From an uncultured Alphaproteobacteria bacterium (GTDB lineage: Bacteria > Pseudomonadota > Alphaproteobacteria > Rs-D84), in NCBI GenBank assembly GCA_944393245.1, contig CALXZM010000003.1, forward strand, positions 14,151 to 78,150: a stretch of 64,000 nt of DNA, given 5' to 3'. The translations under genes and the position numbers were made by a program. The notes under the pieces were generated by a model. It saw only the letters and a list, made by a program, of their open reading frames with translations. It had not been told where the DNA came from and did no database searches. This document shows positions 8,879-33,927 of the stretch, piece by piece. The first letter of the stretch is position 1. Each line of letters opens with the position of its first letter.

Positions 8879-9343
8879 ATGAAACAAGAATCTGGACGTT
8901 CAATGATTGAAATGATGGGGGTGTTGGCCATTATGGGGGTTATTACCGTGGCGGCAATTGCGGCAATATCCAGTGCGATGAACATGCAAAAACATAACGA
9001 GGTTAATGACCAAGTATTGCAAATGGTGACACAGGTACGTCAAACTTTTACTGAATATGATGATTATTCAAATATCAATAATGCAACAATATTTGGGGCA
9101 ATTGGTATGTCAAATAAAAATCCGTATGGTGGTACATATGAAATCAATGTCAATCCATCAAATACGCGCCAGTTTGTAATATCAATTAATGGTTTGTCGC
9201 AGTCTGATTGTGAATATTTTATAACCAAGGGCTGGGATGGTTCCGTTGGGTATGAGGCATCCGGGCGCACGGAAAGTGGTGCCACAGGAACGTGTACCAA
9301 TCCAAATGGTGAAAATGTTGTCAGAATAACGTACGGCGAATAA
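8879..9343 (+). CDS. Type IV pilin/pseudopilin-like protein with prepilin-type N-terminal cleavage/methylation motif
   Basis: N-terminus MKQESGRSMIEMMGVLAIMGVITVAAIAAI has Gly at -1 and Glu at +5 followed by a hydrophobic helix (class III signal). 154 aa with two Cys near the C-terminus. RBS AGAGG. Confidence 0.55.
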   Translation: MKQESGRSMIEMMGVLAIMGVITVAAIAAISSAMNMQKHNEVNDQVLQMVTQVRQTFTEYDDYSNINNATIFGAIGMSNKNPYGGTYEINVNPSNTRQFVISINGLSQSDCEYFITKGWDGSVGYEASGRTESGATGTCTNPNGENVVRITYGE

Positions 9344-14422: not shown

Positions 14423-14992
14423 ATGGCATCATATATAGCAAATGATATGCGTGTGGGTTGGGTTATTTCACACAATGGTAAACGTTATTCTGTCATGTCT
14501 ATTACCAAGGTTAAACCGGGCAAGGGTGGCGCATTTGTTCAGGCTGACCTGCGCGATATTGATTCTGGGAACAAGGATAATAACCGTTGGCGTGCAGAAG
14601 ACAAGGTTGAAAAATTAATGGTCGAAGACACAGAATGCCAATATCTGTATTCTGATGGTTCAGATGCGTATTTTATGAATTTGTCCAATTATGAACAGTT
14701 TACCGTTTCGGTTGAATCACTGGGTGAACAGATGAAATTTTTGGCCCCAGAAATGATGGTAAAGGTAAACTTTGTCGAAGGACAGCCCGTATCCGTATCT
14801 TTGCCCAAAACAGTTATCGCAACAGTTGCAGAAACTGAACCCGCGTTAAAGGGCCAAACCGTTTCCAACAGCGGTGGTAAACCGGCTATTTTGGATAACG
14901 GTGTACGTGTTCAGGTTCCTTTGTTCATCGAACAGGGTGAAAAAATAGTGGTAAATACTGAAACGTTGGAATACGTTGAACGCGCAAAATAA
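14423..14992 (+). CDS. efp: Elongation factor P
   Basis: MASYIANDMRVGWVISHNGKRYSVMS...KPGKGGAFVQADLRDI includes the KPGKG loop. Start placed at ATG 14423 with RBS AAGGGGG. Confidence 0.9.
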   Translation: MASYIANDMRVGWVISHNGKRYSVMSITKVKPGKGGAFVQADLRDIDSGNKDNNRWRAEDKVEKLMVEDTECQYLYSDGSDAYFMNLSNYEQFTVSVESLGEQMKFLAPEMMVKVNFVEGQPVSVSLPKTVIATVAETEPALKGQTVSNSGGKPAILDNGVRVQVPLFIEQGEKIVVNTETLEYVERAK

Positions 14993-15056
14993 ATAAAAAT
15001 AAATTATAATAACACATCTGGCGACAAAAAATTTGCTTATGTATGTTCAATACACG

Positions 15057-15293
15057 ACGCAAATTTTTTGTCGTCATCTGTATTACTCTAATTCATTTTA
15101 TATAACACCACATCTGTGTGTGGTGACAACCAGCTCGTGTAACATTTGTACACTTCGTGGTTGTCACTGCACGCATCTGTGGCATTCTAATTTATTTTAC
15201 AGTGGCATTTTACGCAAATTTTTTGTCGTCATCTGTATTACTCTAATTCATTTTATATAACACCACATCTGTGTGTGGTGGCATTCTAATTTA
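15057..15293. repeat. Tandemly duplicated ~150-bp intergenic element containing a CACCACA-TCTGTG-TGTGGTG hairpin in each copy
   Basis: A ~70-bp block ACGCAAATTTTTTGTCGTCATCTGTATTACTCTAATTCATTTTATATAACACCACATCTGTGTGTGGTG occurs at 15057-15126 and again at 15211-15280. Each copy is followed by GGCATTCTAATTTATT. The element sits between convergent efp and fba. Confidence 0.7.
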
Positions 15294-15303
15294 TTCTTGT
15301 GGG

Positions 15304-16254
15304 TTACTGTTTTAATTTCCCGTCTGAACCCATAATATTTTTTATTTCGTCAATGCAATTATTGTAAATATTCTGGCGACCGGCGGTTAAATAATCGCGT
15401 GGATTAAAACTGGCCGGGTTTTGTGCCAATGTTTCCCGTACGCCCGCCGTAAATGCCAGGCGCGAATCACTGTCCACGTTGATTTTGCAAATGTTCATTT
15501 GAACAGCACGGCGCAGTTGGTCCGCTGCAATGCCCATCGCGTTTGACATTTTTCCGCCATATTCATTTATAGTTTTGATAAAATTTTGTGGAATACTGGA
15601 CGCGCCATGTAAAACCAATGGAAAATCTGGCAATTGTTTTGCAACCCTGTCCAGAATATCAAAGCGTAATTCTGTGTCGGCCAATTTGCGTTTGTATGCG
15701 CCGTGACTGGTACCGATTGCAATTGCCAATGAATCTATGTTTGTGGCGTTTACAAAATTTACGACGTCGTCGGGATTGGTATAATTTGATGTGGTACTGT
15801 GTGTATTTTCATCTTCGACCCCGGACAGAACGCCCAGTTCCGCTTCGACTGTTACATCATATTTATGTGCGTATTCTGTTACAGTTCGTGCCAAATCAAC
15901 GTTTGCATCAAATGGCAATTTTGACCCATCAATCATCACAGATGAAAAACCAATCTGGATTGCGTGAACGCATGATTCGAACGATGAACCATGATCCAGG
16001 TGCAGTGCGACCCCATTATGTTCGCGCAGGTTTAGTCCCCAAATCATTCCGCGCAATAAATCGTCGCCCATGTATTTTAAGGCTGATTCAGATACCGCCA
16101 AAATTACAGGACTGTGCGTATCGTGTGCTGCATTTATAATTGCGGTCAATGTTTCCATATTGTAAAAATTAAATGCGGGTACAGCATAATGGCGCGCCAA
16201 CGCGTCCATAAACATGTTTGTAGTATTAACCAATCCAAAATCTTTATAGTCCAT
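15304..16254 (-). CDS. fba: Class II fructose-1,6-bisphosphate aldolase
   Basis: 316 aa. Zn-dependent class II aldolase blocks (HLDHG, GTSHGAYK, VLHGASS). Confidence 0.85.
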   Translation of the reverse strand: MDYKDFGLVNTTNMFMDALARHYAVPAFNFYNMETLTAIINAAHDTHSPVILAVSESALKYMGDDLLRGMIWGLNLREHNGVALHLDHGSSFESCVHAIQIGFSSVMIDGSKLPFDANVDLARTVTEYAHKYDVTVEAELGVLSGVEDENTHSTTSNYTNPDDVVNFVNATNIDSLAIAIGTSHGAYKRKLADTELRFDILDRVAKQLPDFPLVLHGASSIPQNFIKTINEYGGKMSNAMGIAADQLRRAVQMNICKINVDSDSRLAFTAGVRETLAQNPASFNPRDYLTAGRQNIYNNCIDEIKNIMGSDGKLKQ

Positions 16255-16356
16255 GTAAATGTTCCTTTGGTTATCTGTTTGTTTTTAAATTATAACATAC
16301 AAAGGCCACTTGGTCCCGATATAATTTTTTTGGGAATTTTTTCCGAACAATAAAAC

Positions 16357-16385
16357 TTGACAATTAAATGATTTTGTCATATATT
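16357..16385 (+). promoter_or_regulatory. Near-consensus sigma70 promoter TTGACA-N17-TATATT overlapped by palindrome TGACAAT-N8-ATTGTCA (candidate operator)
   Basis: -35 TTGACA at 16357-16362, 17-nt spacer, -10 TATATT at 16380-16385. The inverted repeat TGACAATTAAATGATTTTGTCA spans 16358-16379. It lies ~290 nt upstream of the lipoprotein gene at 16677. Confidence 0.45.
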
Positions 16386-16676
16386 TATATGTGAATTAAG
16401 TCGGCACACATGTATATTATGTGGGGTTAACGTAAATGATAATGATGAACAATCTGTATCGTTTTTATTCTGGTGGTTCGCCCGATTGGCCGCCATGCGA
16501 CAAATGTCGTAATGGGGGGGAAACGGGGGATGAAAAATCATCGAAAACGTTGACCGCTGAATATGCTGTTGTGTCAAATGTGGGATAAAGTCTGGGAATT
16601 TTTTCCAGGCTTTTTTTGTATTTGTTAGGAAAAGTCCCAACAGATACATTGCCAAGAAAAAATAAAGGGGGCAACC

Positions 16677-17135
16677 ATGCAATTTAAAAAAACGGTACCG
16701 TATAAACTGAAACGCATAATCCCGATGTTGGGTATTGCGGGCGCATCATTGTTTATGGGCGGCTGCGAGAAAGAAGAACCATTGCGTGATGTAGAATTGC
16801 ATTTTAGTCCCGATAATTATTTTGAGATAAGCTATGAAGACCGTGGTGAATATGGCATTAGTGAATTATCAAAAGCATATGTAAATGAACCGACCGTTGG
16901 TACAATATATCTGGTGCCGGATGGGGATTGGGCAACCTGTAAAACAGATATAATAAATGAAGTACGCAGAAGATATTTAGAGCCATTATTTGACTATTCA
17001 CCAAAGTTTAAGGGCAAAGGCGATTTTAATTTTTATCCTGGTGCCGCATCCCAGGTATCCCAAGACAGTTTATGGTTTGTTAATAAGGGATTCACAATAA
17101 ACAAATATCGTCCATTAAGTGATTATCAACGTTAA
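16677..17135 (+). CDS. Lipoprotein, paralog 1 of a tandem pair (unknown family)
   Basis: Signal peptide with lipobox (ASLFMGG|C). 152 aa. About 65% identical to the next gene. RBS AAGGGGG. Confidence 0.65.
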   Translation: MQFKKTVPYKLKRIIPMLGIAGASLFMGGCEKEEPLRDVELHFSPDNYFEISYEDRGEYGISELSKAYVNEPTVGTIYLVPDGDWATCKTDIINEVRRRYLEPLFDYSPKFKGKGDFNFYPGAASQVSQDSLWFVNKGFTINKYRPLSDYQR

Positions 17136-17163
17136 AAAATCCATTAAGCATAAGGAGTAAAAC

Positions 17164-17622
17164 ATGAAATTCACAAAAACGGTACCGTACAAACTGAAAC
17201 GCATAATCCCGATGTTGGGTATTGCGGGCGCATCATTGTTTATGGGCGGATGTGAAAAGGAAAAGCCATTGCGCGATGTGGAATTGCATTTTAATCGTGA
17301 TGATTTTTCTACAATAGTATATCAAGACCGGGGGGAAATTTTCATTAGTGAATTAGCAAAAGCATATGCAAATGATCCGACGGTTGGTACCATATATCTG
17401 ATACCTGATGGCGAGTGGGGTACCTATGTTGCCATTAGTATAAGTGATATGCGTCAAACTTTTTTGGAGCCAATGTTTAATTATTCGCCAAAATTTAAGG
17501 GCAAAGGCGATTTTAATTTTTATCCTGGTGCCGCATCAAAAATACCACAGGATAGTTTGTGGTTTGTCAGCAAGGGTTTTACAATAAACAAATATCGCCC
17601 ATTAAGTGATTATCAACGTTAA
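17164..17622 (+). CDS. Lipoprotein, paralog 2 of a tandem pair (unknown family)
   Basis: Identical N-terminal 30 aa and lipobox, and conserved C-terminus SPKFKGKGDFNFYPGAAS...GFTINKYRPLSDYQR. RBS AAGGAG. Confidence 0.65.
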   Translation: MKFTKTVPYKLKRIIPMLGIAGASLFMGGCEKEKPLRDVELHFNRDDFSTIVYQDRGEIFISELAKAYANDPTVGTIYLIPDGEWGTYVAISISDMRQTFLEPMFNYSPKFKGKGDFNFYPGAASKIPQDSLWFVSKGFTINKYRPLSDYQR

Positions 17623-17625
17623 AAA

Positions 17626-17650
17626 ATCCGGCATAATGCCGGATTTTTTA
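17626..17650 (+). terminator. Intrinsic terminator after the lipoprotein pair (TCCGGC-ATAAT-GCCGGA + T6)
   Basis: GC-rich stem followed by TTTTTT. Confidence 0.6.
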
Positions 17651-17757
17651 TGCCGAAAACAACCCCCGGTTTGGATTTGGTGGTTTTATTATTTGACAGT
17701 ACGGCGGAAAACGTGCAAAAATTTAATTGTAAAAACGCTATACGGCGGGGGAAATGA

Positions 17758-18957
17758 ATGAGAAAGATTTTTTTCACACTATTATGTATATGTATCTTTA
17801 ACACCGGCGCAATCGCCGAGTTTGTGACCGATTGCACAATGGATGAAAATGGTAACTGTTCCGAGGGATGTGAACCCAATAATAAGGGTACCACCTGCTT
17901 GTTATGCCAACCCGGTTCTTATAAATCGGGTAATAATAAAAATGCGTGTACACAATGTGTTTTCCCAGCTGGTGCAATATACAAGGAAAATAATCAATCC
18001 GGATTGATCACAGCGTGTGAATGGACTGCAACATGTACAGAGGGGCAATATTGGGTTAACGGTAGTTCGGAATCCGGTTCGGATACATTTGGTTGTACCG
18101 CGTGTCCAGGCAATTATGGACCAATGGAGGGGAGTGGGGAATTAAGTGTAAGTGGCAGTGGATACACAGCATCATCTGATATAACAAGTGGTGATGTTAA
18201 TAACAGATGCGATGCCAATGTTATAACATTGCTGTTGCACAAAAATATTGACCTGAGTGACACTATGTATGCAGATCATGATGTGAAGGCCAAATATGGG
18301 GTGGGATTTAAAATCCACGACGATGATGATGATTGGGCTGAAACGATAAATGGGGCAATGCAACCAAATAAGAAAATTATTCAATTTAATGGGTATAACT
18401 CTGCAAGTGCGTGTAATGCTGATATGTATTTTGATACACGTGGGAAATTACAACAAACTTGGGATGCTTTGTTTGGTTTGGGAAATCCTGCAAATTTATA
18501 TGCGTGCTATACAACGTCAGAAGTTACAATAAATTATTTTGACCCAGGTGATGCAACAGAACCATGGCGTACGGATACGGTTGGGATTGATAATGGCTTT
18601 GTGTATAATGTGGTGGATTATGGTGGAACGTATGAAGCTTCTGGACAAGTGTTTTTATCATATACATGCAATACAGGGGATGGGGGATCGTGCGGGAGTG
18701 CGCAACCGGGCAATCCGTTGCGGATTTTAGTGATAGATGCGACAGAAATAAATTTGGTGGCGCAGTTTGGTGCCTGTCCAGCTGGGTCTTATTGTACAGG
18801 TGGTAATAAAAAACCGTGTCCCGCCGGAACAACCAGTGATGCTGGGTCCCAAACGGTTCGTGATTGTTATATGGTTGCTGGGGAAAATGGAACGCAGTTT
18901 TGTGATGTTAATGGATGTTTTACTTTACCGGGTACTGGTAATATTGCATACGAATAA
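17758..18957 (+). CDS. Secreted Cys-rich protein with ephrin-receptor/TNFR-like (GCC2/GCC3-type) CxxCxxGxY repeats
   Basis: Signal peptide MRKIFFTLLCICIFNTGAIA. Repeats CLLCQPGSYKSGNNKNACTQC, CTACPGNYGP and CPAGSYCTGGNKKPCPAGTTS fit the C-x2-C-x2-G-x-Y...C-x2-C pattern of eukaryotic ephrin-receptor-like Cys-rich domains. Also an Asp-rich stretch HDDDDDW. Confidence 0.55.
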   Translation: MRKIFFTLLCICIFNTGAIAEFVTDCTMDENGNCSEGCEPNNKGTTCLLCQPGSYKSGNNKNACTQCVFPAGAIYKENNQSGLITACEWTATCTEGQYWVNGSSESGSDTFGCTACPGNYGPMEGSGELSVSGSGYTASSDITSGDVNNRCDANVITLLLHKNIDLSDTMYADHDVKAKYGVGFKIHDDDDDWAETINGAMQPNKKIIQFNGYNSASACNADMYFDTRGKLQQTWDALFGLGNPANLYACYTTSEVTINYFDPGDATEPWRTDTVGIDNGFVYNVVDYGGTYEASGQVFLSYTCNTGDGGSCGSAQPGNPLRILVIDATEINLVAQFGACPAGSYCTGGNKKPCPAGTTSDAGSQTVRDCYMVAGENGTQFCDVNGCFTLPGTGNIAYE

Positions 18958-19061
18958 AAGCAAAAACCAAACTTGACAATCGTGAATTTTGTGCAACAAT
19001 TAAAGCACGAATCGGGGAGTGTGACAGAGGATAGCAGAATTTGAATCCAAGGATACGAAAT

Positions 19062-19442
19062 ATGAAAAAAGTTCTGGTTTCTGTAATCGCGTTGACATCC
19101 CTGGCGGGCTGTGGCGCATATTATGATTATTACAAGGGTGATATCAGATATACTCAGGATGGCCCAGATTGTATTTATTATGCCAATGAACATGGGCGCA
19201 ATTATTCCCAATATATCGGTGGTTTGGACACGGGTAAAAAAATTGTTTATCGCAATACTCGGTGTGAAGATTTGTATGCGTTGGACAATTTTGGCCAGGA
19301 ACCACGTCGTGATCGTAAAATCATAACACCCGCCGCACAAATTACACCGTGTTCAAAATGCAGTGAACAAGTGTCTTGTAATTCCTGTGCACAGGCACAA
19401 CCGGTTTTGAAGCGCAGATACATTATCGTTCCGGCGATGTAA
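19062..19442 (+). CDS. Small Cys-containing lipoprotein (unknown function)
   Basis: MKKVLVSVIALTSLAG|C lipobox, and a C-terminal CSKCSEQVSCNSC cluster. RBS AAGGA. Start at ATG 19062 rather than the ORF-track start. Confidence 0.5.
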   Translation: MKKVLVSVIALTSLAGCGAYYDYYKGDIRYTQDGPDCIYYANEHGRNYSQYIGGLDTGKKIVYRNTRCEDLYALDNFGQEPRRDRKIITPAAQITPCSKCSEQVSCNSCAQAQPVLKRRYIIVPAM

Positions 19443-19559
19443 TATGAATTGTTGCATAAATGCAGCGGCACATAAATTGTGCCGCTGTTTTTATGTGTTT
19501 ATGTCGTTGCACAGTCGTCAAAATTGTGATAAAATTGTATAAAAAGAAAGGGGTTTTAT

Positions 19560-19940
19560 ATGAAAAAACTGTTACAGAAATTCGGTGTCGCTGGTATCGT
19601 TGTTTTGGCGGGTGGGGCCGCTGCATTGGCGGCCGGTCCCGCTGGTGTTGGGGTAGATCAATCCGGATTATGCGCACTGATTGGACAAATGCAGGGTGTG
19701 TTTAAAATTTTGCGTACATTGGCGTTTGTTGGTGCGGCGTTCATTATCGCTGGATGGGCGTGGGGTTATATTTCCAGTGGCAAGTTTGAAATGGAAGATT
19801 TGCGTAAAAAGGGTACCGGTATGCTGGTCGGGTTCGTTTTGTTATTCGGTATCGGTATAGTGTTACAGTTCTTCCTGTCGTCGGCCGGTTTGGAATTGAT
19901 TGGCTGCCAGGATGTGATTTTGAACTGGGGCAATGTGTAA
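19560..19940 (+). CDS. VirB2/TrbC-like type IV secretion pilin candidate (orphan)
   Basis: 126 aa. Long signal peptide, then two hydrophobic helices separated by a short charged loop (GLCALIGQMQGVFKILRTLAFVGAAFIIAGWAWGY / GMLVGFVLLFGIGIVLQFFL). Size and topology match the VirB2/TrbC family. No other T4SS genes lie nearby. Confidence 0.45.
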   Translation: MKKLLQKFGVAGIVVLAGGAAALAAGPAGVGVDQSGLCALIGQMQGVFKILRTLAFVGAAFIIAGWAWGYISSGKFEMEDLRKKGTGMLVGFVLLFGIGIVLQFFLSSAGLELIGCQDVILNWGNV

Positions 19941-19952
19941 TATAAGATAAAA

Positions 19953-19989
19953 AACGGGGCGACCGTTTGGTCGCCCCGTTTATTTATTT
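19953..19989. terminator. Bidirectional intrinsic terminator (AACGGGGCGACC-GTTT-GGTCGCCCCGTT)
   Basis: 12-bp perfect stem flanked by A-run and T-run. Sits between the convergent genes ending at 19940 and 19996. Confidence 0.7.
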
Positions 19990-19995
19990 GAATTT

Positions 19996-20931
19996 TTATC
20001 TTAAACTTTGTTTTGCAAATTTATTTATAAATTTTCGTTCCATTTTCTTTAATTCACCAGTTAGTTGGGAAATTGACTTTTGGGATATGTCCTGTTCCGG
20101 GGGACGGTTTGTTTGCTGAATCATTTTTACGCGGTTGTTTATTAATTCTGTGTACAGGATTTCTGTGAATTTGTTGAAATTCATGTTCGGGTTTTCGTCC
20201 AGTTTGGATATGGCGCGATTTAACGCATTCCTGCGCGCCAGTAATGAATGAACGCCCATATAATCATATATTTTGCCACGAATGTTATAGTAATCTTTTA
20301 TTGTATTTATGTCCGATGTGTAAAAAAATGCGCGGTGTAACATGTTATTAAATTGGCGCATGTTTGCATTGTTTCTGTGTGCGATGCCGTTTATTATTTT
20401 GTTTGATTGTGTCAGGGCGTTGCGCTGATAAATTCGGGCGAATTTATATGACATGTTATATAATTCTGTGAATTTTATGCCGGGATTCATAAAGTATAAT
20501 TGGGCAAATATCATTCGGCCCCATGGTTGTAATATTTTCCAACATGCATATCTGGTCAATTTGGCGTCTGGGCCATTTTTACGCAATGTGTTGCCAAATA
20601 TGCTGTTGATTATGTAATCATGATTGATTTTTACAGCATGGTCGGTATAGAAAGATTCAAATGTTTTTGGTTGTGCAATGCCGTTTGGTGTTTGGGGATA
20701 AACTGATTTAAAATCTGTTGGATGAATGTTTTCTAAAACAGTATCCATTATATTGTCATGTTTGCCCACATATGATTCACCAAATAAATTATACAAATCC
20801 GAAAACAACCAATATTCTGTATCGTTTAATTCAGTATCGGTTGGAAATAATGTCGGTTGAATATTTTCGTTTACACGATGTTTTGTGCTTTGCAGGATTC
20901 TGTACGTTGATTCATATATTTTTGATGCCAT
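19996..20931 (-). CDS. DinD/Bro-N-like protein (DNA-damage-inducible protein D homolog; phage antirepressor-type N-terminal domain)
   Basis: 311 aa. EYWLFSDLYNLFGESYVG...LTRYACWKILQ resembles the Bro-N core of E. coli DinD (EFWSARDLAPLLDY...SRYACYLVVQ). The C-terminal IYDYMGVHSLLARRNALNRAISKL resembles DinD ILDHMGSTELAANLFRATQTEEKL. The 4-bp gap to the upstream RHH gene indicates an operon. Confidence 0.5.
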   Translation of the reverse strand: MASKIYESTYRILQSTKHRVNENIQPTLFPTDTELNDTEYWLFSDLYNLFGESYVGKHDNIMDTVLENIHPTDFKSVYPQTPNGIAQPKTFESFYTDHAVKINHDYIINSIFGNTLRKNGPDAKLTRYACWKILQPWGRMIFAQLYFMNPGIKFTELYNMSYKFARIYQRNALTQSNKIINGIAHRNNANMRQFNNMLHRAFFYTSDINTIKDYYNIRGKIYDYMGVHSLLARRNALNRAISKLDENPNMNFNKFTEILYTELINNRVKMIQQTNRPPEQDISQKSISQLTGELKKMERKFINKFAKQSLR

Positions 20932-20934
20932 TTT

Positions 20935-21189
20935 TTACACCAATGTTTGTTGTTGCGGGGCAGGTTGGGCGTCAGCACTGACCAATGAATACAGGACAGA
21001 TGATATTAGTAATTGGTATGGAACGTGTTGTTGTTCTGCCAGTTTTTTTATGCGTTCCAATATTTGATGGGGAATTCGCATGTTTATGACACTGTCTGAT
21101 TTGTTAAATGCGCGATATGCTGCGTATTCTTTTAACAGTGCTTCGATATTCATTATGAATAATTGCTGCATTACGTTTGGCATACACAA
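20935..21189 (-). CDS. Ribbon-helix-helix DNA-binding protein, BrnA-antitoxin-like
   Basis: The C-terminal half INMRIPHQILERIKKLAEQQHVPYQLLISSVLYSLV matches the BrnA/CopG-type motif (..itiRld.dvlewfk..a...g.gYQtlIN.vLreyv). TTG/ATG start. No BrnT-like toxin ORF is found upstream. Confidence 0.5.
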   Translation of the reverse strand: MCMPNVMQQLFIMNIEALLKEYAAYRAFNKSDSVINMRIPHQILERIKKLAEQQHVPYQLLISSVLYSLVSADAQPAPQQQTLV

Positions 21190-21459
21190 TCTCCTATACC
21201 GACGACAATACCACAGTACTTACAATTGACTATATCACTGTATTGACGCTTGTCAATACATTTGTAATTATGGGTGTCAACACGGCTGTAATTACGGTTG
21301 TGGGGGCGTTTGTGTTGTTTGGTGTGTTGTGGTACAAAAAACATTTATGTGTTGTAAATTTTTGTCTGGTTTTAGTGCTGTGGTGGGCGCGATTTCTTGC
21401 TTTTTTATGAACATGTGTATAAAATGGTTGTATTCTGATTATGGAAAGGATTTATTGTT

Positions 21460-22779
21460 ATGATTAAAAAGTTTTTTTATGTGTTTATGCTGTGTGCTGT
21501 ATTCAGCGTGCCTGCACGTGCAGAATTAAAGGTTGATATTGTTGCCGGGGCCACTGAACCAGTATCAATCGCGGTTCAAAAATTGGAAACAGTTGGTAAA
21601 GTTAATCCCGATGATGCAAAAATGATACGCGATGTGGTGGATGCTGATTTGAAATCTACGGGATTGTTCAGAATTGTTTCAAGGGATGCGTTGCCTGAAT
21701 TTGTTGAAATGGGAAAAATGCCTGATTTTCAATTATGGTCCGCGGTAAAGGCCCAGGTTTTGGTTCAGGCAAAATTGGCCGCTGAATCCGGGGGACGGTA
21801 TAATTTGGAATTCTATGTTTGGGACGTCAATGGCAAAGAGCAGATAGAGGCACAAAGTTTGGTCGCGTCAAAAAAATCTGCGCGCCGTTTGGCCCATATT
21901 ATGGCAGATGCAATTTATGAACGTTTAACCGGCGAAGTTGGCTATTTTGATACTCAAATTGTTTTTATTGCCGAAAGTGGGCCGGTACAAGATCGCGTAA
22001 AACGTATGGCTATTATGGACCAGGACGGACATGGAATGCGTTATTTGTCAGACGAAGATACTTTCGTTATGTCGCCACATTTTTCGCCGAATATGCAAAC
22101 TGTTGTCTTTCTGTCGTTCAGGGATGATGACCCAATGGTTTGGACGTTGGATTTAGAAACAGGGGAACAGCGTCGTTTGGGACAATTTGGGGGAATGAAC
22201 TTTGCGCCGCGCTTTTCACCAGATGGGACTAAAATCGCATTGTCGTTGGTTAAAAATGGAATTACGCATATATATGAATATGATATTGCGTCAAAAAAAC
22301 TGCGTCAATTGACGTTCGGATATTCTTTGAATACCAGTCCGTCTTATTCCCCAGATGGTAAAAAAATGGCATTTAATTCAGATCGCAGTGGTAATCAGCA
22401 GATTTATATACTGGATTTAGAATCTGGTGATGTTGAACGCATAACGTATGGGGCGGGGCGGTATGCAACACCTGCGTGGTCCCCAGACGGTAATTTTATC
22501 GCGTTTACAAAAATGGCGGATGATACATTCTATATCGGCATTATGGATCCGCGTGGCCGTAATGAAAAAATATTGGCCGGTGGCTGGTATATGGAGGCCC
22601 CATCTTGGGCACCAGGATCACGGCGGTTGGTGTATTATGAAACTGAAAAATCGTTGGACGGTATGGAACGTTTCAGTCATATTCGCAGTGTGGATATAAC
22701 CGGACAAAATATTTATGATATAGAATTGCCTGATGGCGTTTATGGGGTTGAACCGACATGGTCACCAAAATTGCCATAG
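21460..22779 (+). CDS. tolB: Tol-Pal system beta-propeller protein TolB
   Basis: Signal peptide, N-terminal TolB domain, and repeated S(P/W)SPDG beta-propeller blades (FSPDGTKIA, YSPDGKKMAF, WSPDGNFIAF). Confidence 0.85.
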   Translation: MIKKFFYVFMLCAVFSVPARAELKVDIVAGATEPVSIAVQKLETVGKVNPDDAKMIRDVVDADLKSTGLFRIVSRDALPEFVEMGKMPDFQLWSAVKAQVLVQAKLAAESGGRYNLEFYVWDVNGKEQIEAQSLVASKKSARRLAHIMADAIYERLTGEVGYFDTQIVFIAESGPVQDRVKRMAIMDQDGHGMRYLSDEDTFVMSPHFSPNMQTVVFLSFRDDDPMVWTLDLETGEQRRLGQFGGMNFAPRFSPDGTKIALSLVKNGITHIYEYDIASKKLRQLTFGYSLNTSPSYSPDGKKMAFNSDRSGNQQIYILDLESGDVERITYGAGRYATPAWSPDGNFIAFTKMADDTFYIGIMDPRGRNEKILAGGWYMEAPSWAPGSRRLVYYETEKSLDGMERFSHIRSVDITGQNIYDIELPDGVYGVEPTWSPKLP

Positions 22780-23192
22780 GGCGCGTGGTCAAAATACTTT
22801 GTTGGTCTGTGATGTTTGGGGCGGGCGGGGCATGTGCCACGCCCGCAATTGTTGATTATGTTATTGATGGTGATACTTTTGCAGCGCGACTGTTGTTTGA
22901 TGACGGCATAAAAATAAAGGTGCGTGTTCGTGTTGCTGATATAGATACGCCTGAAATAAATGGGATGTGTGAATCTGAAAAAGTTATGGCAAATCGGGCG
23001 CGGGACAGGTTGGTGGAATTAATGCCCGTGGGTACAGTGGTGGAACTGGTTGATATTACAGACGATAAGTATTTGGGACGTATTGATGCAGGCGTCATAT
23101 TGCCTGATGGGCGTAATTTGTCGCGTATAATCACAGACGAAGGACTGGGGCGGTCATATAACGGTGGTAAACGTATGTCGTGGTGTAAATAA
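22758..23192 (+). CDS. Secreted staphylococcal-nuclease (SNase/thermonuclease)-like protein
   Basis: Signal-like N-terminus, then VIDGDTF...VRVADIDTPE...GR motifs of the SNase fold. Overlaps the tolB stop by 22 nt. Start uncertain (alternative ATG at 22812). Confidence 0.6.
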   Translation: MVTKIAIGRVVKILCWSVMFGAGGACATPAIVDYVIDGDTFAARLLFDDGIKIKVRVRVADIDTPEINGMCESEKVMANRARDRLVELMPVGTVVELVDITDDKYLGRIDAGVILPDGRNLSRIITDEGLGRSYNGGKRMSWCK

Positions 23193-27512: not shown

Positions 27513-27532
27513 TGTATAGGTAGAGAGAATTG

Positions 27533-30280
27533 ATGAAAAACGATCTGAAAATTTCGACACTGACAATTATTTGCGTCTTGTGTACGGCGGTATCTGGTGC
27601 ATATGGTGCATCGTCGGTTCGTTCGTTTGGTGGCAGTGGAACGTATGCCAGTGCATCTGACGCGGCGGCGGCCAATACCAGTTCGACAACTTCTGTTCGT
27701 GGTGGGTCTGTGCGTGTAAATCCGGGATCTGGTGTTTCGGGTTCAAGCACGACTATCGATGCCGGTACAACAACAAATGGCCGTGTTGCGACAACACCGC
27801 GTTTGTCAATTGGGCATTATCTGGGTGGCGGAACGTCAATTAGTGGTGGCAGTTCACTGCGTCCGCAAACGCCGGGATCTTCGTCTGGTGGTTCTTCGTC
27901 CGGTGGTGATGGTGGGTTGGATCCAGATGTTGCGGCGGGACTGCGTCAACAGGTTGATCAATTACAGCGTGATGTCGAAGATTTGCGTAATGCTGATGAT
28001 AATATAAATGACCAGTTGTTGGATAAACAGGATGCTTTAATTCCTGGTGATGATGGTTATATCATTATAGATGATGCTACGAACGAAATCTTTGTTGATG
28101 TCGATGCGTTGCAGGGTGCGTTGGAAACCGTTGCGGGCAAAGATGGGCGTGAAGTTGAATTGGGTTCCAATGATACGCATTTGTTGTGGCGTTATGTCGG
28201 TGAAAGTGGTTGGCATGATTTGATTGCGATTGCTGATATTACCGGTCCCCAGGGCCCCCAGGGTGAAAAGGGTGAAAAGGGTGATCCGGGTGATGCGGCC
28301 AATCTGGATGCTTATTCAACAACTGAACAAATGAATCAGGCGATTGGTAATGCGATTGCCGCGCTGGCGGATGTTTATGCGACCAAGGCAGAATTGGCCA
28401 ATTATGCAACGTCTGATGATTTATCGCGTGGTTTGGCGGCCAAGGCAAATGCAGCAGATGTTTACACCAAGGCAGAGGTTTATAACAAGACCGAAGTTGA
28501 TGACAAGGTTGCTGATATTGTTGCCGGTGATATGGACGGGGCATTGGCCAATAAAGCCGATAAAACGTATGTAGATACACAACTGGCGACCAAGGCCGAT
28601 AAAACAGAATTGGCAAATTATGCCACCACGGAATCTGTTACTGCGCTGGATTCCGAAATGGACGAAGTGAACGCCACTGCGACCGAGGCGGCATTAGGTG
28701 CCGCACAGGCGTTGAGTGGCCTGACCGGCAAAGAAGATACATCAAATAAGACACAAACGCTGACAAACAGTGCAACACAGTATCCGTCTGGTGCGGCGGT
28801 AACGACGGCGTTGGAACAAAAGGCTGATAAGTCTGAATTAGAAAATTACGTCACGTCAGATGAATTGGCAGGCAAGGCGGATCAAAGCGCGTTGGATAAT
28901 TTGACTGGACGTGTTTCCGCGAACGAAGCGGGTATATCTGAATTAAATACCACGATGGGGTCGGGTGAATTGACCACGTCTGACAAAACGGTTTTGGGCG
29001 CAATCAATGAATTGAAATCCAAAACGGACGGTATGGCGACCGACGGTAATTTTGAAGAAATGAATAGCAAGATTACCGAAATGGAAGGCAAACTGGATGG
29101 CAAGCAGGATGTTGCCAATATGGCCCAGACCGTGACCGACGATGAAACAAAATATCCGTCGTCTGCGGCGGTTTATGGCGAATTGGAAACCAAGGCAAAT
29201 GCGTCCGATTTGGCGAACTATGCAACCACTGAAACCGTGAACCAGATAACAGAAAATGTCACCAATGTTACGCAAACGGTAACGCAGTTGGGTGATACAA
29301 TTAATAATGCTGAAACGGGACTGAAAAAACAGGTCGAAGATGCCGTTACAGCTGCGAATACCGCCAAAGAGGCGGCCGATGCGGCGACATCTGCGGTTGC
29401 GGGCAAGCAAGATGCATTGGGATTCACCCCGGAAAATGTTGCGAACAAGAGTTCAACTGTTGTTGATGATGAATCAAAATATCCATCATCTGCGGCGGTT
29501 TATGGCGAATTGGAAACCAAGGCAAATGTTTCCGATTTGGCGAACTATGCAACAACTGAAACCGTGAACCAGATTGAACAAAATGTGACCAACGTCACGC
29601 AAAAGGTTAATGAAATCACTAATCCGGATACTGGATTGGCATCCCAGGTTACAAATATCACAAATGTAATTGGCGATGCGGATTCCGGTCTGGTCAAGGA
29701 TGTTGCCGATGCGGCGGCGGCGGCTGATGCGGCACAACAAACCGCAACAGAGGCTAAAAACACCGCTGATGCGGCGCAAACAACTGCTGACGAGGCAAAG
29801 GCCGGTCTGGATGCCAAGGAAGACAAGTCCAACAAGGCCACGTCTATTACGGGGGAAAACCAATCGTCTGCGACGGTGTATCCGTCGGTTGGGGCGATTA
29901 CCCAATGGACGAATGATCGCATAAATGAATTATCGACCGAGGGCCTGCCCGTGAATCCGGATAATATTGGTGCGGGTGCGATTACCACAGAAAAAATAGC
30001 AGATAATGCCGTTACAGAAGATAAATTGAGTGACGAATTAAATACTGAAATTGATGGCAAGGCAAATACGGCCGATTTGGGGGCGTTGGCGACCAAGGAT
30101 CAGATTACAAATGCGGATGTTGCGGATGACGCGGCAATCGCGAAATCAAAGCTGGCATCGGATGTTCAGGCGGCTTTGGACAAGGCTGCTGATGCTGTAA
30201 GTATGGCGGGTGCGTCTGAAAACAGCGTACTGGGTACCGACGACGAAGGTAATCCGGTCTGGTATGAAATAGCAATGTAA
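27533..30280 (+). CDS. Large secreted repetitive fibre-like protein (paralog 1) with collagen-like triplet segment and tail-fibre-like repeat modules
   Basis: Signal peptide, Ser/Gly/Thr-rich low-complexity N-terminal region, THLLWRYVGESGWHDLIAIADITGPQGPQGEKGEKGDPGD (collagen-like G-X-Y preceded by a W..Y.G...W..L motif), and many ELANYATTE / KYPSSAAVYGELETKA / AITTEKIADNAVTEDKL repeats. The C-terminal module YPSVGAITQWTN...LPVNPDNIG is shared with paralog 2. Confidence 0.7.
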   Translation: MKNDLKISTLTIICVLCTAVSGAYGASSVRSFGGSGTYASASDAAAANTSSTTSVRGGSVRVNPGSGVSGSSTTIDAGTTTNGRVATTPRLSIGHYLGGGTSISGGSSLRPQTPGSSSGGSSSGGDGGLDPDVAAGLRQQVDQLQRDVEDLRNADDNINDQLLDKQDALIPGDDGYIIIDDATNEIFVDVDALQGALETVAGKDGREVELGSNDTHLLWRYVGESGWHDLIAIADITGPQGPQGEKGEKGDPGDAANLDAYSTTEQMNQAIGNAIAALADVYATKAELANYATSDDLSRGLAAKANAADVYTKAEVYNKTEVDDKVADIVAGDMDGALANKADKTYVDTQLATKADKTELANYATTESVTALDSEMDEVNATATEAALGAAQALSGLTGKEDTSNKTQTLTNSATQYPSGAAVTTALEQKADKSELENYVTSDELAGKADQSALDNLTGRVSANEAGISELNTTMGSGELTTSDKTVLGAINELKSKTDGMATDGNFEEMNSKITEMEGKLDGKQDVANMAQTVTDDETKYPSSAAVYGELETKANASDLANYATTETVNQITENVTNVTQTVTQLGDTINNAETGLKKQVEDAVTAANTAKEAADAATSAVAGKQDALGFTPENVANKSSTVVDDESKYPSSAAVYGELETKANVSDLANYATTETVNQIEQNVTNVTQKVNEITNPDTGLASQVTNITNVIGDADSGLVKDVADAAAAADAAQQTATEAKNTADAAQTTADEAKAGLDAKEDKSNKATSITGENQSSATVYPSVGAITQWTNDRINELSTEGLPVNPDNIGAGAITTEKIADNAVTEDKLSDELNTEIDGKANTADLGALATKDQITNADVADDAAIAKSKLASDVQAALDKAADAVSMAGASENSVLGTDDEGNPVWYEIAM

Positions 30281-30294
30281 GGGGAATTTGAAAA

Positions 30295-32133
30295 ATGAAA
30301 AAACAAAATATTGTATTTTCTGGATTTATGGCGGCGATACTGTTCAGTGCCGGTGCGGCCAACGCTGCGACCCAAATTGCCAGCAAGCAGTACGTTGATA
30401 ATCGTGAAACGTCAATCCTGCAAACGGTCAGCAATACATATGAAACCAAGGAAAATGTTACAAACCTGACTGAACAGGTAACCCAGTTGGATGATACAAT
30501 CAATAATGAAGATACTGGTCTGGCGGCCAAGGTTGACGATGCTGTCGCTGCCGCGGCCGCAGCGAAACAAACGGCTGATACCGCCAAATCAACTGCAACC
30601 GGCGCACAAAGCGCGGTAGAGGCATTGGGGGCAACCGTTGGTAATGCTGAATCTGGTTTGGTCAAAGATGTAAATGATTTGCAAACAACTGTTGGTCAGT
30701 TGGATACAGAAATGGATTCTAAATTGGATTCTGCAACCGCTGCATCAACATATGAAGTTATATCAAACAAGGCGGCTGAAATCAACGAAGGTAATCAAAC
30801 ATCGCCAACAGCATATCCGTCAGTGGGCGCAATCGTTCAATGGACTAATAAAAAGATTGCGGACTTGTCAGATACTGGATTGCCAGTTAACCCCGGTAAT
30901 ATCAATGATGGAACTATTGCTGGCAGTAAATTGGAAAATGGCGCGGTCACAACTGATAAAATCGCCGATGATGCGGTGACATCTGACAAAATCGCCGATG
31001 ATGCCGTTGGTTCGGGCCAGATTGCAGACGGTGCGGTTGGTACTGATGATATTGCCGATGGTGCCGTGACATCCGATAAATTGGATGGAACATTGGCGGG
31101 ACAAATTGCCGATATTTCTGGCAAGCAGGACATTGCAATGGGTGTCGGTCACGAAAATCATATCGTGACAACTGATGCGTCCGGTAATATTACATCCGCC
31201 GCGACAATCGGCCAGGACAAGGTTACTGGTTTGACCACGGCATTGGCGGGCAAGGCCAGCACAGACGATATTCCGACCGCGGTTTCGGAACTGACAAACG
31301 ACAGCGGTTATTTGACAAATGCCGATATGACCGGCTATGCCAAAACAACTGATTTGGATGCCAAACAGAACAAAAATGTTGGCAGTGAAAATAATGGTAA
31401 AATTTTGACCGTGGGCGCGGATGGTAATATCACAACATCCGCCACAATTGCCCAGTCAAAGGTCGAAGGATTGGAAACCGCATTGGCGGGTAAATTGGAA
31501 TCTGATGATTTGACGGGCTATGTAACCAGTGAATCGTTAACAACCACGTTGGACGATTATGCCACAACAACGGATTTGGGCGCGAAACAAGATAAATTAA
31601 CCGCAACTGGTGCCGCAAATCAACCCGTATATGTTAATGAACAGGGCGTTGTAACGGCCGGTAACACAATTCCGACGGTAACAACAAATATTACCACGGG
31701 CATCACAGATGCGGCCCAGGCGGGCGCAGTGGCCGATAAATTGGCACAAAAGGAAGATGCCGCGAACAAGGTCAAGACGATTAGTGATGGCAATAAATCG
31801 TCTGAAACACTGTTCCCGACAATCGGTGCGATTACCACATGGACTGACCAACAAATTCAAAAATTGTCTGATACTGGTATACCCGTTAATCCGGACAATA
31901 TTGGCAATAGTGCGATAACGACTGATAAAATTGCCAATGGTGCTGTTACAACAGAAAAATTGGCGGACGATTCCGTGACAGAAGACAAACTGAGCAATGA
32001 TGTCGTTGCATCTATTGATGCAAAGTTACCGGCGCCGGATGCGGACTGTGTTGCGGATTCAAATCTGTGCGTATTATCTGTGACACCAGGGGGTGATTTG
32101 GCGTGGGTTGCGGTAACACAACCGGCGGAATAA
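30295..32133 (+). CDS. Secreted repetitive fibre-like protein (paralog 2)
   Basis: Signal peptide ending ANAATQIASKQYVD. Repeats (K/R)IADDAVTSDKIADDAVGSGQIADGAVGTDDIADGAVTSDKL. Two copies of the YPS(V/T)IGAI.(Q/T)WT...LSDTG(L/I)PVNP.NI module. Trp-containing C-terminus (LAWVAVTQPAE). 14-bp gap from paralog 1. Confidence 0.7.
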   Translation: MKKQNIVFSGFMAAILFSAGAANAATQIASKQYVDNRETSILQTVSNTYETKENVTNLTEQVTQLDDTINNEDTGLAAKVDDAVAAAAAAKQTADTAKSTATGAQSAVEALGATVGNAESGLVKDVNDLQTTVGQLDTEMDSKLDSATAASTYEVISNKAAEINEGNQTSPTAYPSVGAIVQWTNKKIADLSDTGLPVNPGNINDGTIAGSKLENGAVTTDKIADDAVTSDKIADDAVGSGQIADGAVGTDDIADGAVTSDKLDGTLAGQIADISGKQDIAMGVGHENHIVTTDASGNITSAATIGQDKVTGLTTALAGKASTDDIPTAVSELTNDSGYLTNADMTGYAKTTDLDAKQNKNVGSENNGKILTVGADGNITTSATIAQSKVEGLETALAGKLESDDLTGYVTSESLTTTLDDYATTTDLGAKQDKLTATGAANQPVYVNEQGVVTAGNTIPTVTTNITTGITDAAQAGAVADKLAQKEDAANKVKTISDGNKSSETLFPTIGAITTWTDQQIQKLSDTGIPVNPDNIGNSAITTDKIANGAVTTEKLADDSVTEDKLSNDVVASIDAKLPAPDADCVADSNLCVLSVTPGGDLAWVAVTQPAE

Positions 32134-32190
32134 CCGAAACAAAGGATTAAAAAAACAACAAATAAAAAAAGAAAGAAAGGAAAGAAAAAA

Positions 32191-33816
32191 ATGAAAAAAT
32201 TAACAGCAGGTATTTTTGCAACATTATTGGCCGTTGTTTCGGTCGATGGGGCATACGCCGCAATCGCATCCAAGGGATACGTTGATGAAAAGGTTGGAAC
32301 AGTTACAACTGCACTTGGAAATAAAGCTGATAAAACAGAATTGGGTAATTATGCAACAACAGCAGCCTTGACTTCCGGTTTGGCGGGTAAGTTAGATACT
32401 GAGGGTACGGCTGCAAAAGCTACAGCAGATGCTTCTGGCAATGTAATCACAACAACATATGCAACAAAAACAGAATTAAACGCAGCTGAAAAGATTGCCA
32501 ATCGTGTGACAACGGTTTCTGATGCTTCTGATGATACACATTATCCAACGGCAAAAGCGGTTTGGGACGTTGTTCAGGCCGAAACATCTGACATTGCGTC
32601 CAGTGGTGATTTGAGTGCGTTGACAACGCGTGTCGGTACATTGGAAAAAGCGTCTGCGACACATGCGACAAAGACAGAATTAACAGATGGTCTGGCCGAA
32701 AAATTGGATACTGCAACCGCGGCAACAACGTATGCAACCAAAACGGAATTGGCTGGAAAGCAAGATAAAATTGCCGGTGCACAGTTAGAGGCATTGAATT
32801 CAGGAATTACCGCGGACAAGGTAGAGGCATATGATGGTTATGCCGCACAGATTTCTGGCAAGTTAGACGCTGCGGGTACGGCTGCAAAAGCTACAGCAGA
32901 TGCTTCTGGCAATGTAATCACAACAACATATGCAACAAAAACAGAATTAGGTGCAAAAGCGAATACCGCTGATTTGGGTGCATTGGCAACAAAAGATACA
33001 GTAAGCGCAACTGAAATTGATGCAGATGCAGTTACAACAGAAAAAATCCTGGATGCTAATGTAACAAAAGCGAAATTGGCATCTGATATACAGACATCTT
33101 TGGGTAAAGCGGATTCTGCTTTACAGCAAGCTGATTTGGCGGATTATGCAAAGACTGCAGAGGTAGCAAGTACATATGAAACCAAAGAAAACGCAGCTTC
33201 AACATATGAAACAAAAGCAAATGCTTCTGCAACATATGAAACAAAAGCAAATGCTTCTGCAACATATGAAACAAAAGCAAATGCTTCTGCAACGTATGCA
33301 ACAAAAGAAGAAATTAAAGGTATGGCAACTGATGCAAACCTGGCACTGAAACAGGATAAAACAGATAATTCATTGGAAACAACAAGCAAGACAGTTGTTG
33401 GGGCTATCAATGAAGTAAAGACAACCGCTGACGGTGCAAGCACTGCTGCAAAAGCAGCACAAACTGCGGCTGATTCAAAATTGCCGACCGCCACATATAA
33501 CACCCAGGTTGGTACTGTTTCAGCAGAAAATATGGGAACAACGGCAAAAACGGTTGTGACCGCTATCAAGGAAGTAGCAGGTGAAGCGGAGGCTGCACAA
33601 TCTGCAGCGTCTGCGGCAGATTCTAAAGCTCAGGCAGCACAAAGTGCAGCAGAAGCCGCTGATTCTAAAGCTCAAGCAGCACAAACAACTGCTAATGCAG
33701 CTATCCCAAAAGTAAATGCGGAAGGTAGTGACGGTAAGTACGTTTTGACTGCAACGGCTGCAAATGGCGTTGCTACATACAAATGGGAACTTATCGAACG
33801 TGGGTCTGCTGAATAA
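32191..33816 (+). CDS. Secreted repetitive fibre-like protein (paralog 3)
   Basis: Signal peptide plus AAIASKGYVDEKV. Internal exact 75-bp duplication (DASGNVITTTYATKTEL module), 30-bp tandem repeats (TYETKANASA x4-5), C-terminus ...ATYKWELIERGSAE. Confidence 0.7.
   Translation: MKKLTAGIFATLLAVVSVDGAYAAIASKGYVDEKVGTVTTALGNKADKTELGNYATTAALTSGLAGKLDTEGTAAKATADASGNVITTTYATKTELNAAEKIANRVTTVSDASDDTHYPTAKAVWDVVQAETSDIASSGDLSALTTRVGTLEKASATHATKTELTDGLAEKLDTATAATTYATKTELAGKQDKIAGAQLEALNSGITADKVEAYDGYAAQISGKLDAAGTAAKATADASGNVITTTYATKTELGAKANTADLGALATKDTVSATEIDADAVTTEKILDANVTKAKLASDIQTSLGKADSALQQADLADYAKTAEVASTYETKENAASTYETKANASATYETKANASATYETKANASATYATKEEIKGMATDANLALKQDKTDNSLETTSKTVVGAINEVKTTADGASTAAKAAQTAADSKLPTATYNTQVGTVSAENMGTTAKTVVTAIKEVAGEAEAAQSAASAADSKAQAAQSAAEAADSKAQAAQTTANAAIPKVNAEGSDGKYVLTATAANGVATYKWELIERGSAE
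33172..33321 (+). repeat. 30-bp tandem repeat (about 5 units, 3 perfect) inside paralog 3, encoding TYETKANASA
   Basis: ACATATGAAACAAAAGCAAATGCTTCTGCA repeated head-to-tail. Flanking units are diverged by 3-6 substitutions. Confidence 0.85.
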
Positions 33817-33927
33817 TGATTTGTAAAAATGTGTGCGGTGTTAAATGTGCACCGCACACAGGTAAAAAAAACAGATTGCGATAAACGAACAGTGGAACGA
33901 AACAGATACTTTGGGTAGAATACGGAT

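Follow-up and report, generated by a model that had tools for sequence, protein, structure and literature searches.

The window analysed here, a 64,000-nt stretch of contig CALXZM010000003.1 (GenBank assembly GCA_944393245.1), comes from an uncultured gut alphaproteobacterium of the lineage Rs-D84 / Candidatus Enterousia. Between a class II aldolase gene ("fba") and tolB it carries five consecutive plus-strand open reading frames (ORFs) for exported proteins, which a first-pass annotation had read as one co-regulated accessory island. The region is not one island; it consists of three unrelated units, namely Unit A (16357-18957), Unit B (19062-19940) and Unit C (19996-21183, minus strand). The explanation we prefer, with a probability of about 0.6, is a composite of three independent units in which Unit A would act as a variable adhesin-type surface cassette. 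Unit A is the only accessory part at this site, and it is lineage-specific and changes its position between genomes. It is present in some loci and absent in others, it occurs at two genomic sites together with conserved control DNA, and the cysteine-rich (Cys-rich) secreted protein encoded in it shows an extreme mosaic divergence. The small lipoprotein and the pilin-like protein of Unit B are conserved as a pair across the order. The features of the region are as follows.

15304-16254 (minus): class II aldolase, "fba", flanking gene
16357-16385 (plus): promoter P1, TTGACA-17-TATATT, 11 of 12 consensus positions
16436-16588 (plus): probable small ORF of 50 aa, no signal peptide, core PDWPPCDxC..GG
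16587-16620 (plus): hairpin (16587-16613) and U-run beginning at the small-ORF stop, terminator or attenuator candidate
16677-17135 (plus): lipoA, 152 aa, lipobox LFMGG-C30
17164-17622 (plus): lipoB, tandem paralog of lipoA, lipobox LFMGG-C30
17620-17650 (plus): terminator after lipoB, -18.4 kcal/mol, z -4.8
17693-17722 (plus): P2, promoter-like site of the Cys-rich gene, TTGACA-18-AAAAAT, TG before
17758-18957 (plus): Cys-rich secreted protein, 399 aa, Sec-type signal peptide ending AIA, 24 Cys
18973-19000 (plus): P3, promoter-like site of the small lipoprotein gene, TTGACA-16-AACAAT, TG before
19062-19442 (plus): small lipoprotein, 126 aa, lipobox LAG-C17
19462-19488 (plus): intrinsic terminator between the small lipoprotein and pilin-like genes, -28.6 kcal/mol, z -6.9
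19560-19940 (plus): pilin-like membrane protein, 126 aa, signal peptide and two hydrophobic helices
19952-19981 (both strands): bidirectional terminator between the convergent pilin-like and DinD-like genes, -29.7 and -27.4 kcal/mol, z -7.7
19996-20931 (minus): DinD-like protein, 311 aa, NCBIfam DinD 1.3e-8, below the cut-off
20935-21183 (minus): CopG/ribbon-helix-helix protein, 82 aa, first gene of its operon, PF12441 37.3 bits against a gathering score of 28
21256-21229 (minus): promoter of the CopG operon, TTGACA-16-TATAGT, 11 of 12 positions
21460-22779: tolB, flanking gene

All five plus-strand ORFs of the first-pass annotation were found in place. They do not fill the interval up to tolB as it had supposed, because the two minus-strand genes of Unit C (DinD-like and CopG) stand between the pilin-like gene and tolB. 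The GC content of the region (0.37-0.45) is the same as that of the flanks. The export of all five proteins was read from sequence motifs only, and by this reading signal peptides or lipoboxes are present in all five, as had been claimed. The claim that none has a recognisable housekeeping function also held: Pfam, NCBIfam, PHROGs and PADLOC gave zero family matches for any of the five exported proteins, and their database annotation is "hypothetical protein" only. Searches of the PDB with sequence profiles of the lipoprotein, Cys-rich and pilin-like families gave no match. A scan of 14900-21600 against Rfam returned nothing at the gathering level, and its low-scoring small RNA "hits" coincide with terminators. 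Five consecutive exported proteins are, by our own uncomputed estimate, not improbable in themselves, since two of them are duplicates.

The composite build of the region is observed directly in the gene order of related genomes. In the relative L009 the order is the same as in the window. In five others (L015, L016, L017, L021 and L023), fba is followed by the genes for the small lipoprotein, the pilin-like protein, the DinD-like protein, CopG and then tolB, and there is no cassette. Among these, L017 has housekeeping genes 89-96% identical to those of the window, as near as L009, while L021 and L023 are far more distant, with ~50% identity in the pilin-like protein. In a metagenome set of 80 loci around pilin-like homologs of 42-78% identity, fba and the small lipoprotein were at most 200 nt apart and no lipoB or Cys-rich homolog was found; fba lay upstream in 31 of 38 loci, CopG downstream in 36 of 42 and tolB downstream in 25 of 27. 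Among the loci compared, the cassette was present at the fba site in the window and L009 only. The presence/absence polymorphism of a genomic island was therefore found for 16357-18957 only, not for 19041-19940. Of the supposed accessory island between fba and tolB, only 16357-18957 fits the description; the small lipoprotein and the pilin-like gene keep their position exactly here, in relatives down to ~50% identity. In the five relatives without the cassette, the neighbourhood of fba and tolB is kept with all four remaining genes, and only Unit A is missing from it. One half of what had been named as refuting the first-pass reading was thus observed, namely that Unit B keeps its position; no housekeeping annotation goes with its genes.

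The cassette has a second site. In eight other loci, from L003-L008 and the more distant L024-L026, it lies between the gene of a large Cys-rich protein (859-1097 aa) and pth. The Cys-rich gene of the pth-site cassette is a full-length homolog of the window gene (hhalign probability 100%, ~30% identity), while the large Cys-rich protein preceding it has no homolog in the window. Between the window and L009 the protein identities were 91% for ppa, 95% for efp, 84% for fba and 92% for tolB, compared with ~75% for lipoA and lipoB, 33% for the Cys-rich protein, 87% for the small lipoprotein and 74% for the pilin-like protein.

The transcription signals also divide the region. The first-pass annotation had pointed to a strong promoter and to clean terminators at 17626 and 19953, and these stood up: P1 (CTTGACAAT...GTCATATATTTAT) is retained in the cassettes of L009, L008, L003 and L005, whatever the genomic site, and also in L024, and the hairpins at 17620-17650 and 19952-19981 fold strongly. 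The terminator after lipoB is almost invariant in five cassettes, and the intergenic region between lipoB and the Cys-rich gene has 82% column identity across cassettes. P3 is kept in the relatives with an "empty" site, where it follows directly after fba. In the scan as a whole, promoter-like sites were not more numerous than in shuffled sequence; the sites named here stand out by their score, intergenic position and conservation. Three to four pairs of promoter and terminator are thus spread over the region. The proposed co-regulated module does not agree with this arrangement, in which the internal terminators at 16587-16613 and 19462-19488 and the sites P2 and P3 split the region. Since each unit has its own promoters and terminators, a single co-regulated operon is unsupported.

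Promoter, small ORF and hairpin accompany the cassette at each site, in the window and in the relatives. The small ORF has exactly 50 codons in three variants, with 44-64% amino acid identity and 5-8 synonymous codon changes, and 48 aa in L024; it is annotated as a gene in some assemblies. It probably encodes a small protein, as its codon changes suggest, and it could alternatively be a translated leader or translation-coupled attenuator, or both. The hairpin at its stop codon (16587-16613) folds with -17.6 kcal/mol and z -4.5, and the relatives show a compensatory change in it (CTGG/CCAG versus CCGG/CCGG). A leader acting as RNA only was considered and set aside, the covariation being slight (-1.4 kcal/mol). 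A GGCCRCC stretch inside the small ORF could pair with the Shine-Dalgarno sequence of lipoA, and no covariation was seen there. A palindromic operator overlapping P1 had also been suggested. The spacer of P1 does contain an inverted repeat (TGACAA/TTGTCA), but its 6-bp arms give a weak dyad symmetry that is inconsistent between variants and indistinguishable from the general conservation of the promoter, and the operator was rejected.

The two lipoproteins following this control region are tandem paralogs, as first described: lipoA and lipoB are identical at 116 of 152 residues (76%) and 374 of 459 nucleotides, and they share the N-terminus ...IIPMLGIAGASLFMGG-C30 with its lipobox. The lipobox Cys30 is kept in at least 90% of 28 family members, by motif reading. 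The family comprises 39 clusters confined to the Rs-D84/Enterousia lineage and is without a solved structural relative. One, two or three copies are present per cassette across the relatives, and no further copies of the cassette families were found in the window. Although the window lipoA is 94% identical to an L003 lipoprotein, the Cys-rich partners of the two are only 46% identical. Any contact between the products should therefore involve the conserved part of the Cys-rich protein.

The Cys-rich protein begins with MRKIFFTLLCICIFNTGAIA, and its signal peptide is followed by N-terminal cysteine-rich modules (~25-135), two beta-grasp domains (~150-340) and a conserved C-terminal module (340-399). 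This layout is that of the AlphaFold2 model (pLDDT 77, centre 80-95), in which small disulfide-rich modules occupy both ends and the two beta-grasp domains the centre. Foldseek found nothing at E <= 0.001 with the model; its weak matches were to tandem ubiquitin-like domains, to InlB and to the cysteine-rich domains of TNF receptors (DR5, OX40, 4-1BB, HVEM). Homologs of the protein fall into 13 clusters, all from the Rs-D84/Enterousia lineage. They have the Cys positions, the signal peptide and the last 60 residues in common; the remainder is not conserved. Identity to the L009 ortholog is 33%, and across cassettes it is 33-46%. The alleles are mosaics. The window protein and the homolog P0001 are 25% identical in the N-terminal module and 90-93% identical in all later segments, the N-terminal module of P0001 being nearest to that of P0011, and for P0009 and P0012 the nearest neighbour likewise changes between segments.

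The window protein itself gives no Pfam match to Ephrin_rec_like (PF07699) or Flg_new (PF09479), and its relatives do so to varying degrees. Matches to PF07699 were found in 8 of 19 family members and paralogs; orthologs reach 14.6-19 bits against a gathering score of 23.1, and a paralog in L010 reaches 28 bits over a module 54% identical to window residues 340-397. For Flg_new the L010 protein reaches 71.7 bits, as against 16-17 bits for orthologs (residues ~252-318). The protein had been called eukaryotic-like, which is apt for its ends, where the motif C..CP.G(T/Y)....G...C is repeated as in Ephrin_rec_like/TNFR domains, best known from eukaryotic surface proteins. It does not apply to the centre, which resembles a typical bacterial surface repeat (InlB B-repeat/Flg_new-like). 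Unlike Ephrin_rec_like, the C-terminal module of the window protein carries a lineage-specific tail, CY(M/I)V.G.NGT.FCD.NGCF.LPG.GNI. For the central beta-grasp domains the Listeria-Bacteroides repeat proteins (Flg_new PF09479; InlB B-repeat, PDB 2y5p) are the nearest comparison, from which the window protein differs by its scores below the Pfam threshold, its diderm alphaproteobacterial host and its flanking cysteine-rich modules; it is also without LRR, GW, LPXTG or other known anchoring parts. The C-terminal LPGTG was examined as a sortase signal and rejected, because there is no hydrophobic tail, the T is not conserved (LPGLG and LPGSG in homologs) and the host is diderm.

Several smaller secreted Cys-rich proteins encoded in these genomes likewise terminate in the motif CP.G..S......CY..G....D..G.F of the C-terminal module. 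An extra secreted Cys-rich protein of 199-202 aa with the same kind of C-terminal motif as the 399-aa protein (CP.G..S...CY..G...D..G.F) is encoded between efp and fba in L009 (6938-7537) and in L015 and L016 (7708-8313). The equivalent slot in the window (14993-15303) is empty. The interval between efp and fba is a second variable slot for the Cys-rich protein superfamily.

Hypervariable recombining loci of surface antigens or adhesins are a general class in host-associated bacteria. Unit A resembles them in that the signal peptide, the C-terminus and the regulatory DNA are conserved while the central and N-terminal parts are mosaic and divergent. It differs from them in that the window showed neither silent donor copies nor repeats or invertible elements, and each locus has a single expressed copy. 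In the proposed mechanism, the conserved promoter would drive the small ORF or leader ending in the hairpin and then one to three tandem lipoproteins, and the Cys-rich protein, predicted to be Sec-exported and disulfide-rich, would be expressed from its own promoter after the terminator. The cassette would in this way make an adhesin or receptor-binding complex of the cell envelope. The Cys-rich protein may be held or displayed by the conserved lipoprotein or lipoproteins through its conserved C-terminal module, and its variable N-terminal and central part may contact a changing ligand on a partner or host.

Several observations weigh against this reading. Export is known from motifs only, and the Cys-rich protein has no barrel or autotransporter domain for crossing the outer membrane, so it could remain periplasmic. 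Binding between the lipoproteins and the Cys-rich protein is suggested solely by their conserved adjacency. Neither an integrase nor a transposase lies beside the cassette at either site, and no recombinase or repeats were found that explain the two sites. All that marks the boundaries of the cassette in the window is a direct repeat of 12 nt (AAACTTGACAAT), which its two ends share and which doubles as the -35 region of both P1 and P3. In L026, moreover, the small ORF has an in-frame 9-nt deletion and has lost its stop codon, which makes its coding status less certain.

As to Unit B, the small lipoprotein was confirmed by its lipobox, the Cys of which (C17) is invariant in six orthologs by motif reading. 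Its start is most likely the ATG at 19062 rather than the TTG at 19041. It has a conserved YYDYYKG...DC...RC domain, a C-terminal Cys cluster and a basic tail. In 42 of the 61 metagenome loci with enough flank its gene lies directly upstream of the pilin-like gene, and it takes the same position in L009, L015, L016, L017, L021 and L023. By this synteny in relatives and in the metagenome set, the genes of the small lipoprotein and the pilin-like protein form a core pair of the whole order at this position, and each of them has a promoter and a terminator to itself. A homolog search with the pilin-like protein gave 556 matches, the top 120 at no less than 69% identity, and an exhaustive profile search found the family to comprise only 75 clusters at 50% identity. 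Cys38 and Cys116 are invariant in 20 close relatives and in 14 more diverse members, and the segment ILRTLAFVGAAFIIAGWAW is invariant in the alignment of the 20.

The alternative with the best standing concerns this protein. It holds that the 126-aa protein is a true VirB2/TrbC pilin whose gene is scattered as in Rickettsiales, with the type IV secretion system (T4SS) elsewhere in the genome and the small lipoprotein as a VirB7-like partner. Scattered virB2 genes and a pilus-associated VirB7 lipoprotein both have precedents. By hydropathy and alignment the protein has the VirB2 topology of signal peptide, helix, short basic cytoplasmic loop and helix, and it resembles the TrbC/VirB2 pilins (A. 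tumefaciens VirB2, R751 TrbC, R46 TraM, R388 TrwL) in size, cleavable signal peptide, two helices, basic loop and, as the sequence predicts, in having both ends facing the periplasm. PF04956 (TrbC/VirB2) is also the most frequent Pfam family among its relatives (14 of 57, all below threshold), the best score being that of P0198 (25.6 bits against a gathering score of 27.9, E 1.4e-5, profile positions 11-92 of 98). The window protein has no PF04956 match at E <= 0.1. Alignment of the family with hhalign gave a probability of 1.2% against VirB2 alone and, against six real pilins (two VirB2, the Novacetimonas TrbC/VirB2, R751 TrbC, R46 TraM and R388 TrwL, taken from PDB 8cue, plasmids R751, R46 and R388 and two alphaproteobacterial plasmids), 6.6% with P 0.0055 over 84 collinear columns.

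The other searches argue against a pilin of a T4SS. No pilin was matched in the PDB profile search, NCBIfam gave transmembrane-segment noise only, and tblastn of the protein and of its most TrbC-like relative found no match in 72,556 plasmids. When the T4SS proteins of R751, R46 and R388 (VirB3/4/5/6/8/9/10/11 and the coupling protein) were compared by phmmer with 658 kb around 80 homologs (10 kb on each side), none matched, and no T4SS Pfam family is listed among the called genes of the window or of nine other relatives' loci. A literature search for Rs-D84 and "secretion system" returned nothing relevant, and the word "secretion" is never used in the one comparative paper on the lineage that was searched (PMC12306168). 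In contrast to the TrbC/VirB2 pilins, the window family never adjoins virB3 or virB4 and is paired with a small lipoprotein, and it has an invariant Cys pair near the mature ends. Its helices are near-invariant across the order, which is unusual for pilins. The description as an orphan VirB2/TrbC-like pilin thus stands as regards topology and the leading Pfam family, not as regards the scores, all of which are below threshold, and the suggested link to a T4SS pilus found no T4SS gene to rest on in the loci searched. The protein may be a very distant TrbC/VirB2 relative, judging by these alignments. The odds are somewhat against its being a true member of the VirB2 family, and it is unlikely that it functions as a T4SS pilin; the alternative as a whole, with a scattered gene and a VirB7-like partner, is doubtful to much the same extent.

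The next alternative would make the Cys-rich protein and the lipoproteins structural parts of the periplasm or envelope without contact to a partner, and would explain the divergence by relaxed constraint in an organism with a small genome. It is rather improbable, even though the protein has no recognisable domain for translocation across the outer membrane and the lineage has many unannotated envelope proteins (PMC12306168). Even at ~30% identity the homologs retain an intact reading frame, every Cys position, the signal peptide and the C-terminal module, and the domain types are those of surface adhesins. The exchange of segments together with strongly conserved regulatory DNA points to diversifying selection rather than decay.

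Of still lower probability, and set out here as a speculative extension of the preferred composite, is the combination in which Unit A would be a device by which an obligately partner-dependent gut bacterium attaches to its partner, and Unit B, at the same time, a minimal envelope filament or channel without a T4SS. The lipoprotein would dock the C-terminal module of a recombining adhesin. The outward modules, which belong to a type frequent on the surface of eukaryotic cells, would bind or imitate molecules of a host, either a protist or an animal; the filament would have an N-to-C disulfide where T-pilin is cyclised.

A reading of Unit A as a polymorphic-toxin locus for antagonism, with the mosaic protein as effector and the tandem lipoproteins as immunity proteins, is very unlikely to be right. 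Such a locus would agree with the secreted, mosaic and fast-evolving protein, with the one to three adjacent small paralogs of variable number and with the changing genomic position. However, the C-terminus, which is variable in polymorphic toxins, is here the most conserved part, and the variable parts are binding-type modules. Neither a toxin nor an enzyme domain was detected by Pfam, PADLOC or the fold search. The lipoproteins, which lie upstream under a separate promoter, show no co-variation with the variable region (94% versus 46%). The weakest alternative, one co-regulated accessory island of five exported proteins tied to a T4SS pilus encoded elsewhere, draws on the export signals of all five proteins, on the strong promoter at 16357 with the terminators at 17620-17650 and 19952 and on TrbC/VirB2 as the leading Pfam family in the last gene's relatives. 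It is largely refuted by synteny and hardly credible. All relatives keep the last two genes at this site whether or not the first three are there, the region is divided by internal terminators and by conserved promoters of its separate units, and T4SS genes were found neither within 10 kb in the 80 loci (phmmer) nor among the listed Pfam families of the window and its relatives.

Enterousia is a member of the uncultured order Rs-D84; its genomes measure ~0.75-1.0 Mb, it lacks respiration and the usual transporters, and a dependence on other cells is predicted for it (PMC12306168). The Rs-D84/Enterousia bacteria, with genomes below 1 Mb, are widespread in animal and human guts and thought to live off another cell (PMC12306168). 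For the contact with such a cell the cassette of the composite reading is a concrete candidate, as are the fibrous proteins and the type IV pilin-like gene of the window described below. The cassette also offers a marker for strain typing and a target for studies of localisation and binding. The small lipoprotein and the VirB2-like protein form an order-wide pair, and their case shows that similarity to a pilin is not enough to infer a secretion system. The value of these results is mostly descriptive and hypothesis-generating; they do not overturn current ideas and are not surprising in kind.

Unit C is a conserved, CopG-regulated operon with a DinD-like gene that divides the region from tolB. 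Its first gene (ORF 20935-21189) belongs to the CopG family PF12441. A perfect 22-nt palindrome, TGTATTGACGCTTGTCAATACA (21239-21260), overlaps the operon promoter and is likely, from its position, the autoregulation site of the ribbon-helix-helix protein. The DinD-like protein matches phrog_8036 (6e-15) and the PADLOC candidate defence family PDC-S13 (6e-15). It evolves fast, with 51% identity to L009 versus 96% for CopG, and is fixed at this site across the order.

Several further genes of the window were recorded. The type IV pilin-like gene at 8879-9343 (plus) encodes a 154-aa protein whose N-terminus (MKQESGRSMIEMMGVLAIMGVITVAAIA) resembles the class III signal of type IV pilins and pseudopilins, with Glu +5 after Gly and two C-terminal Cys; no Pfam match is recorded for it, and in every relative's locus it keeps its place upstream of rluD-like and asmA-like genes. 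At 27530-34836 (plus) there are four consecutive secreted proteins rich in Ala, Thr and Ser (915, 612, 541 and 302 aa) without a Pfam family, three of which have IAS(K/Q)(Q/G)YVD just past the signal peptide. An L021 homolog matches Collagen and Alanine_zipper, and the four are likely to be surface proteins of fibrous type. The segment 38729-40512 (plus) may be the remnant of an integrated element: directly upstream of a phage-integrase-like gene (39514-40512) it encodes two small Cys-rich proteins of 125 and 124 aa, with 7-8 Cys and without a signal peptide.

The aldolase at 15304-16254 matches F_bP_aldolase at E 1.6e-90 and lies below every NCBIfam equivalog cut-off (415 versus 511 bits). 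Genomes of Rs-D84 are said to be without fructose-bisphosphate aldolase (PMC12306168); either this published absence is wrong or the gene is a different ketose-bisphosphate aldolase. Beyond tolB, a secreted staphylococcal-nuclease-like protein is encoded at 22758-23192 (plus), its start overlapping the 3' end of tolB by 22 nt, and this gene is conserved after tolB in all relatives, with weak or full Pfam SNase matches in L016, L021 and L023.

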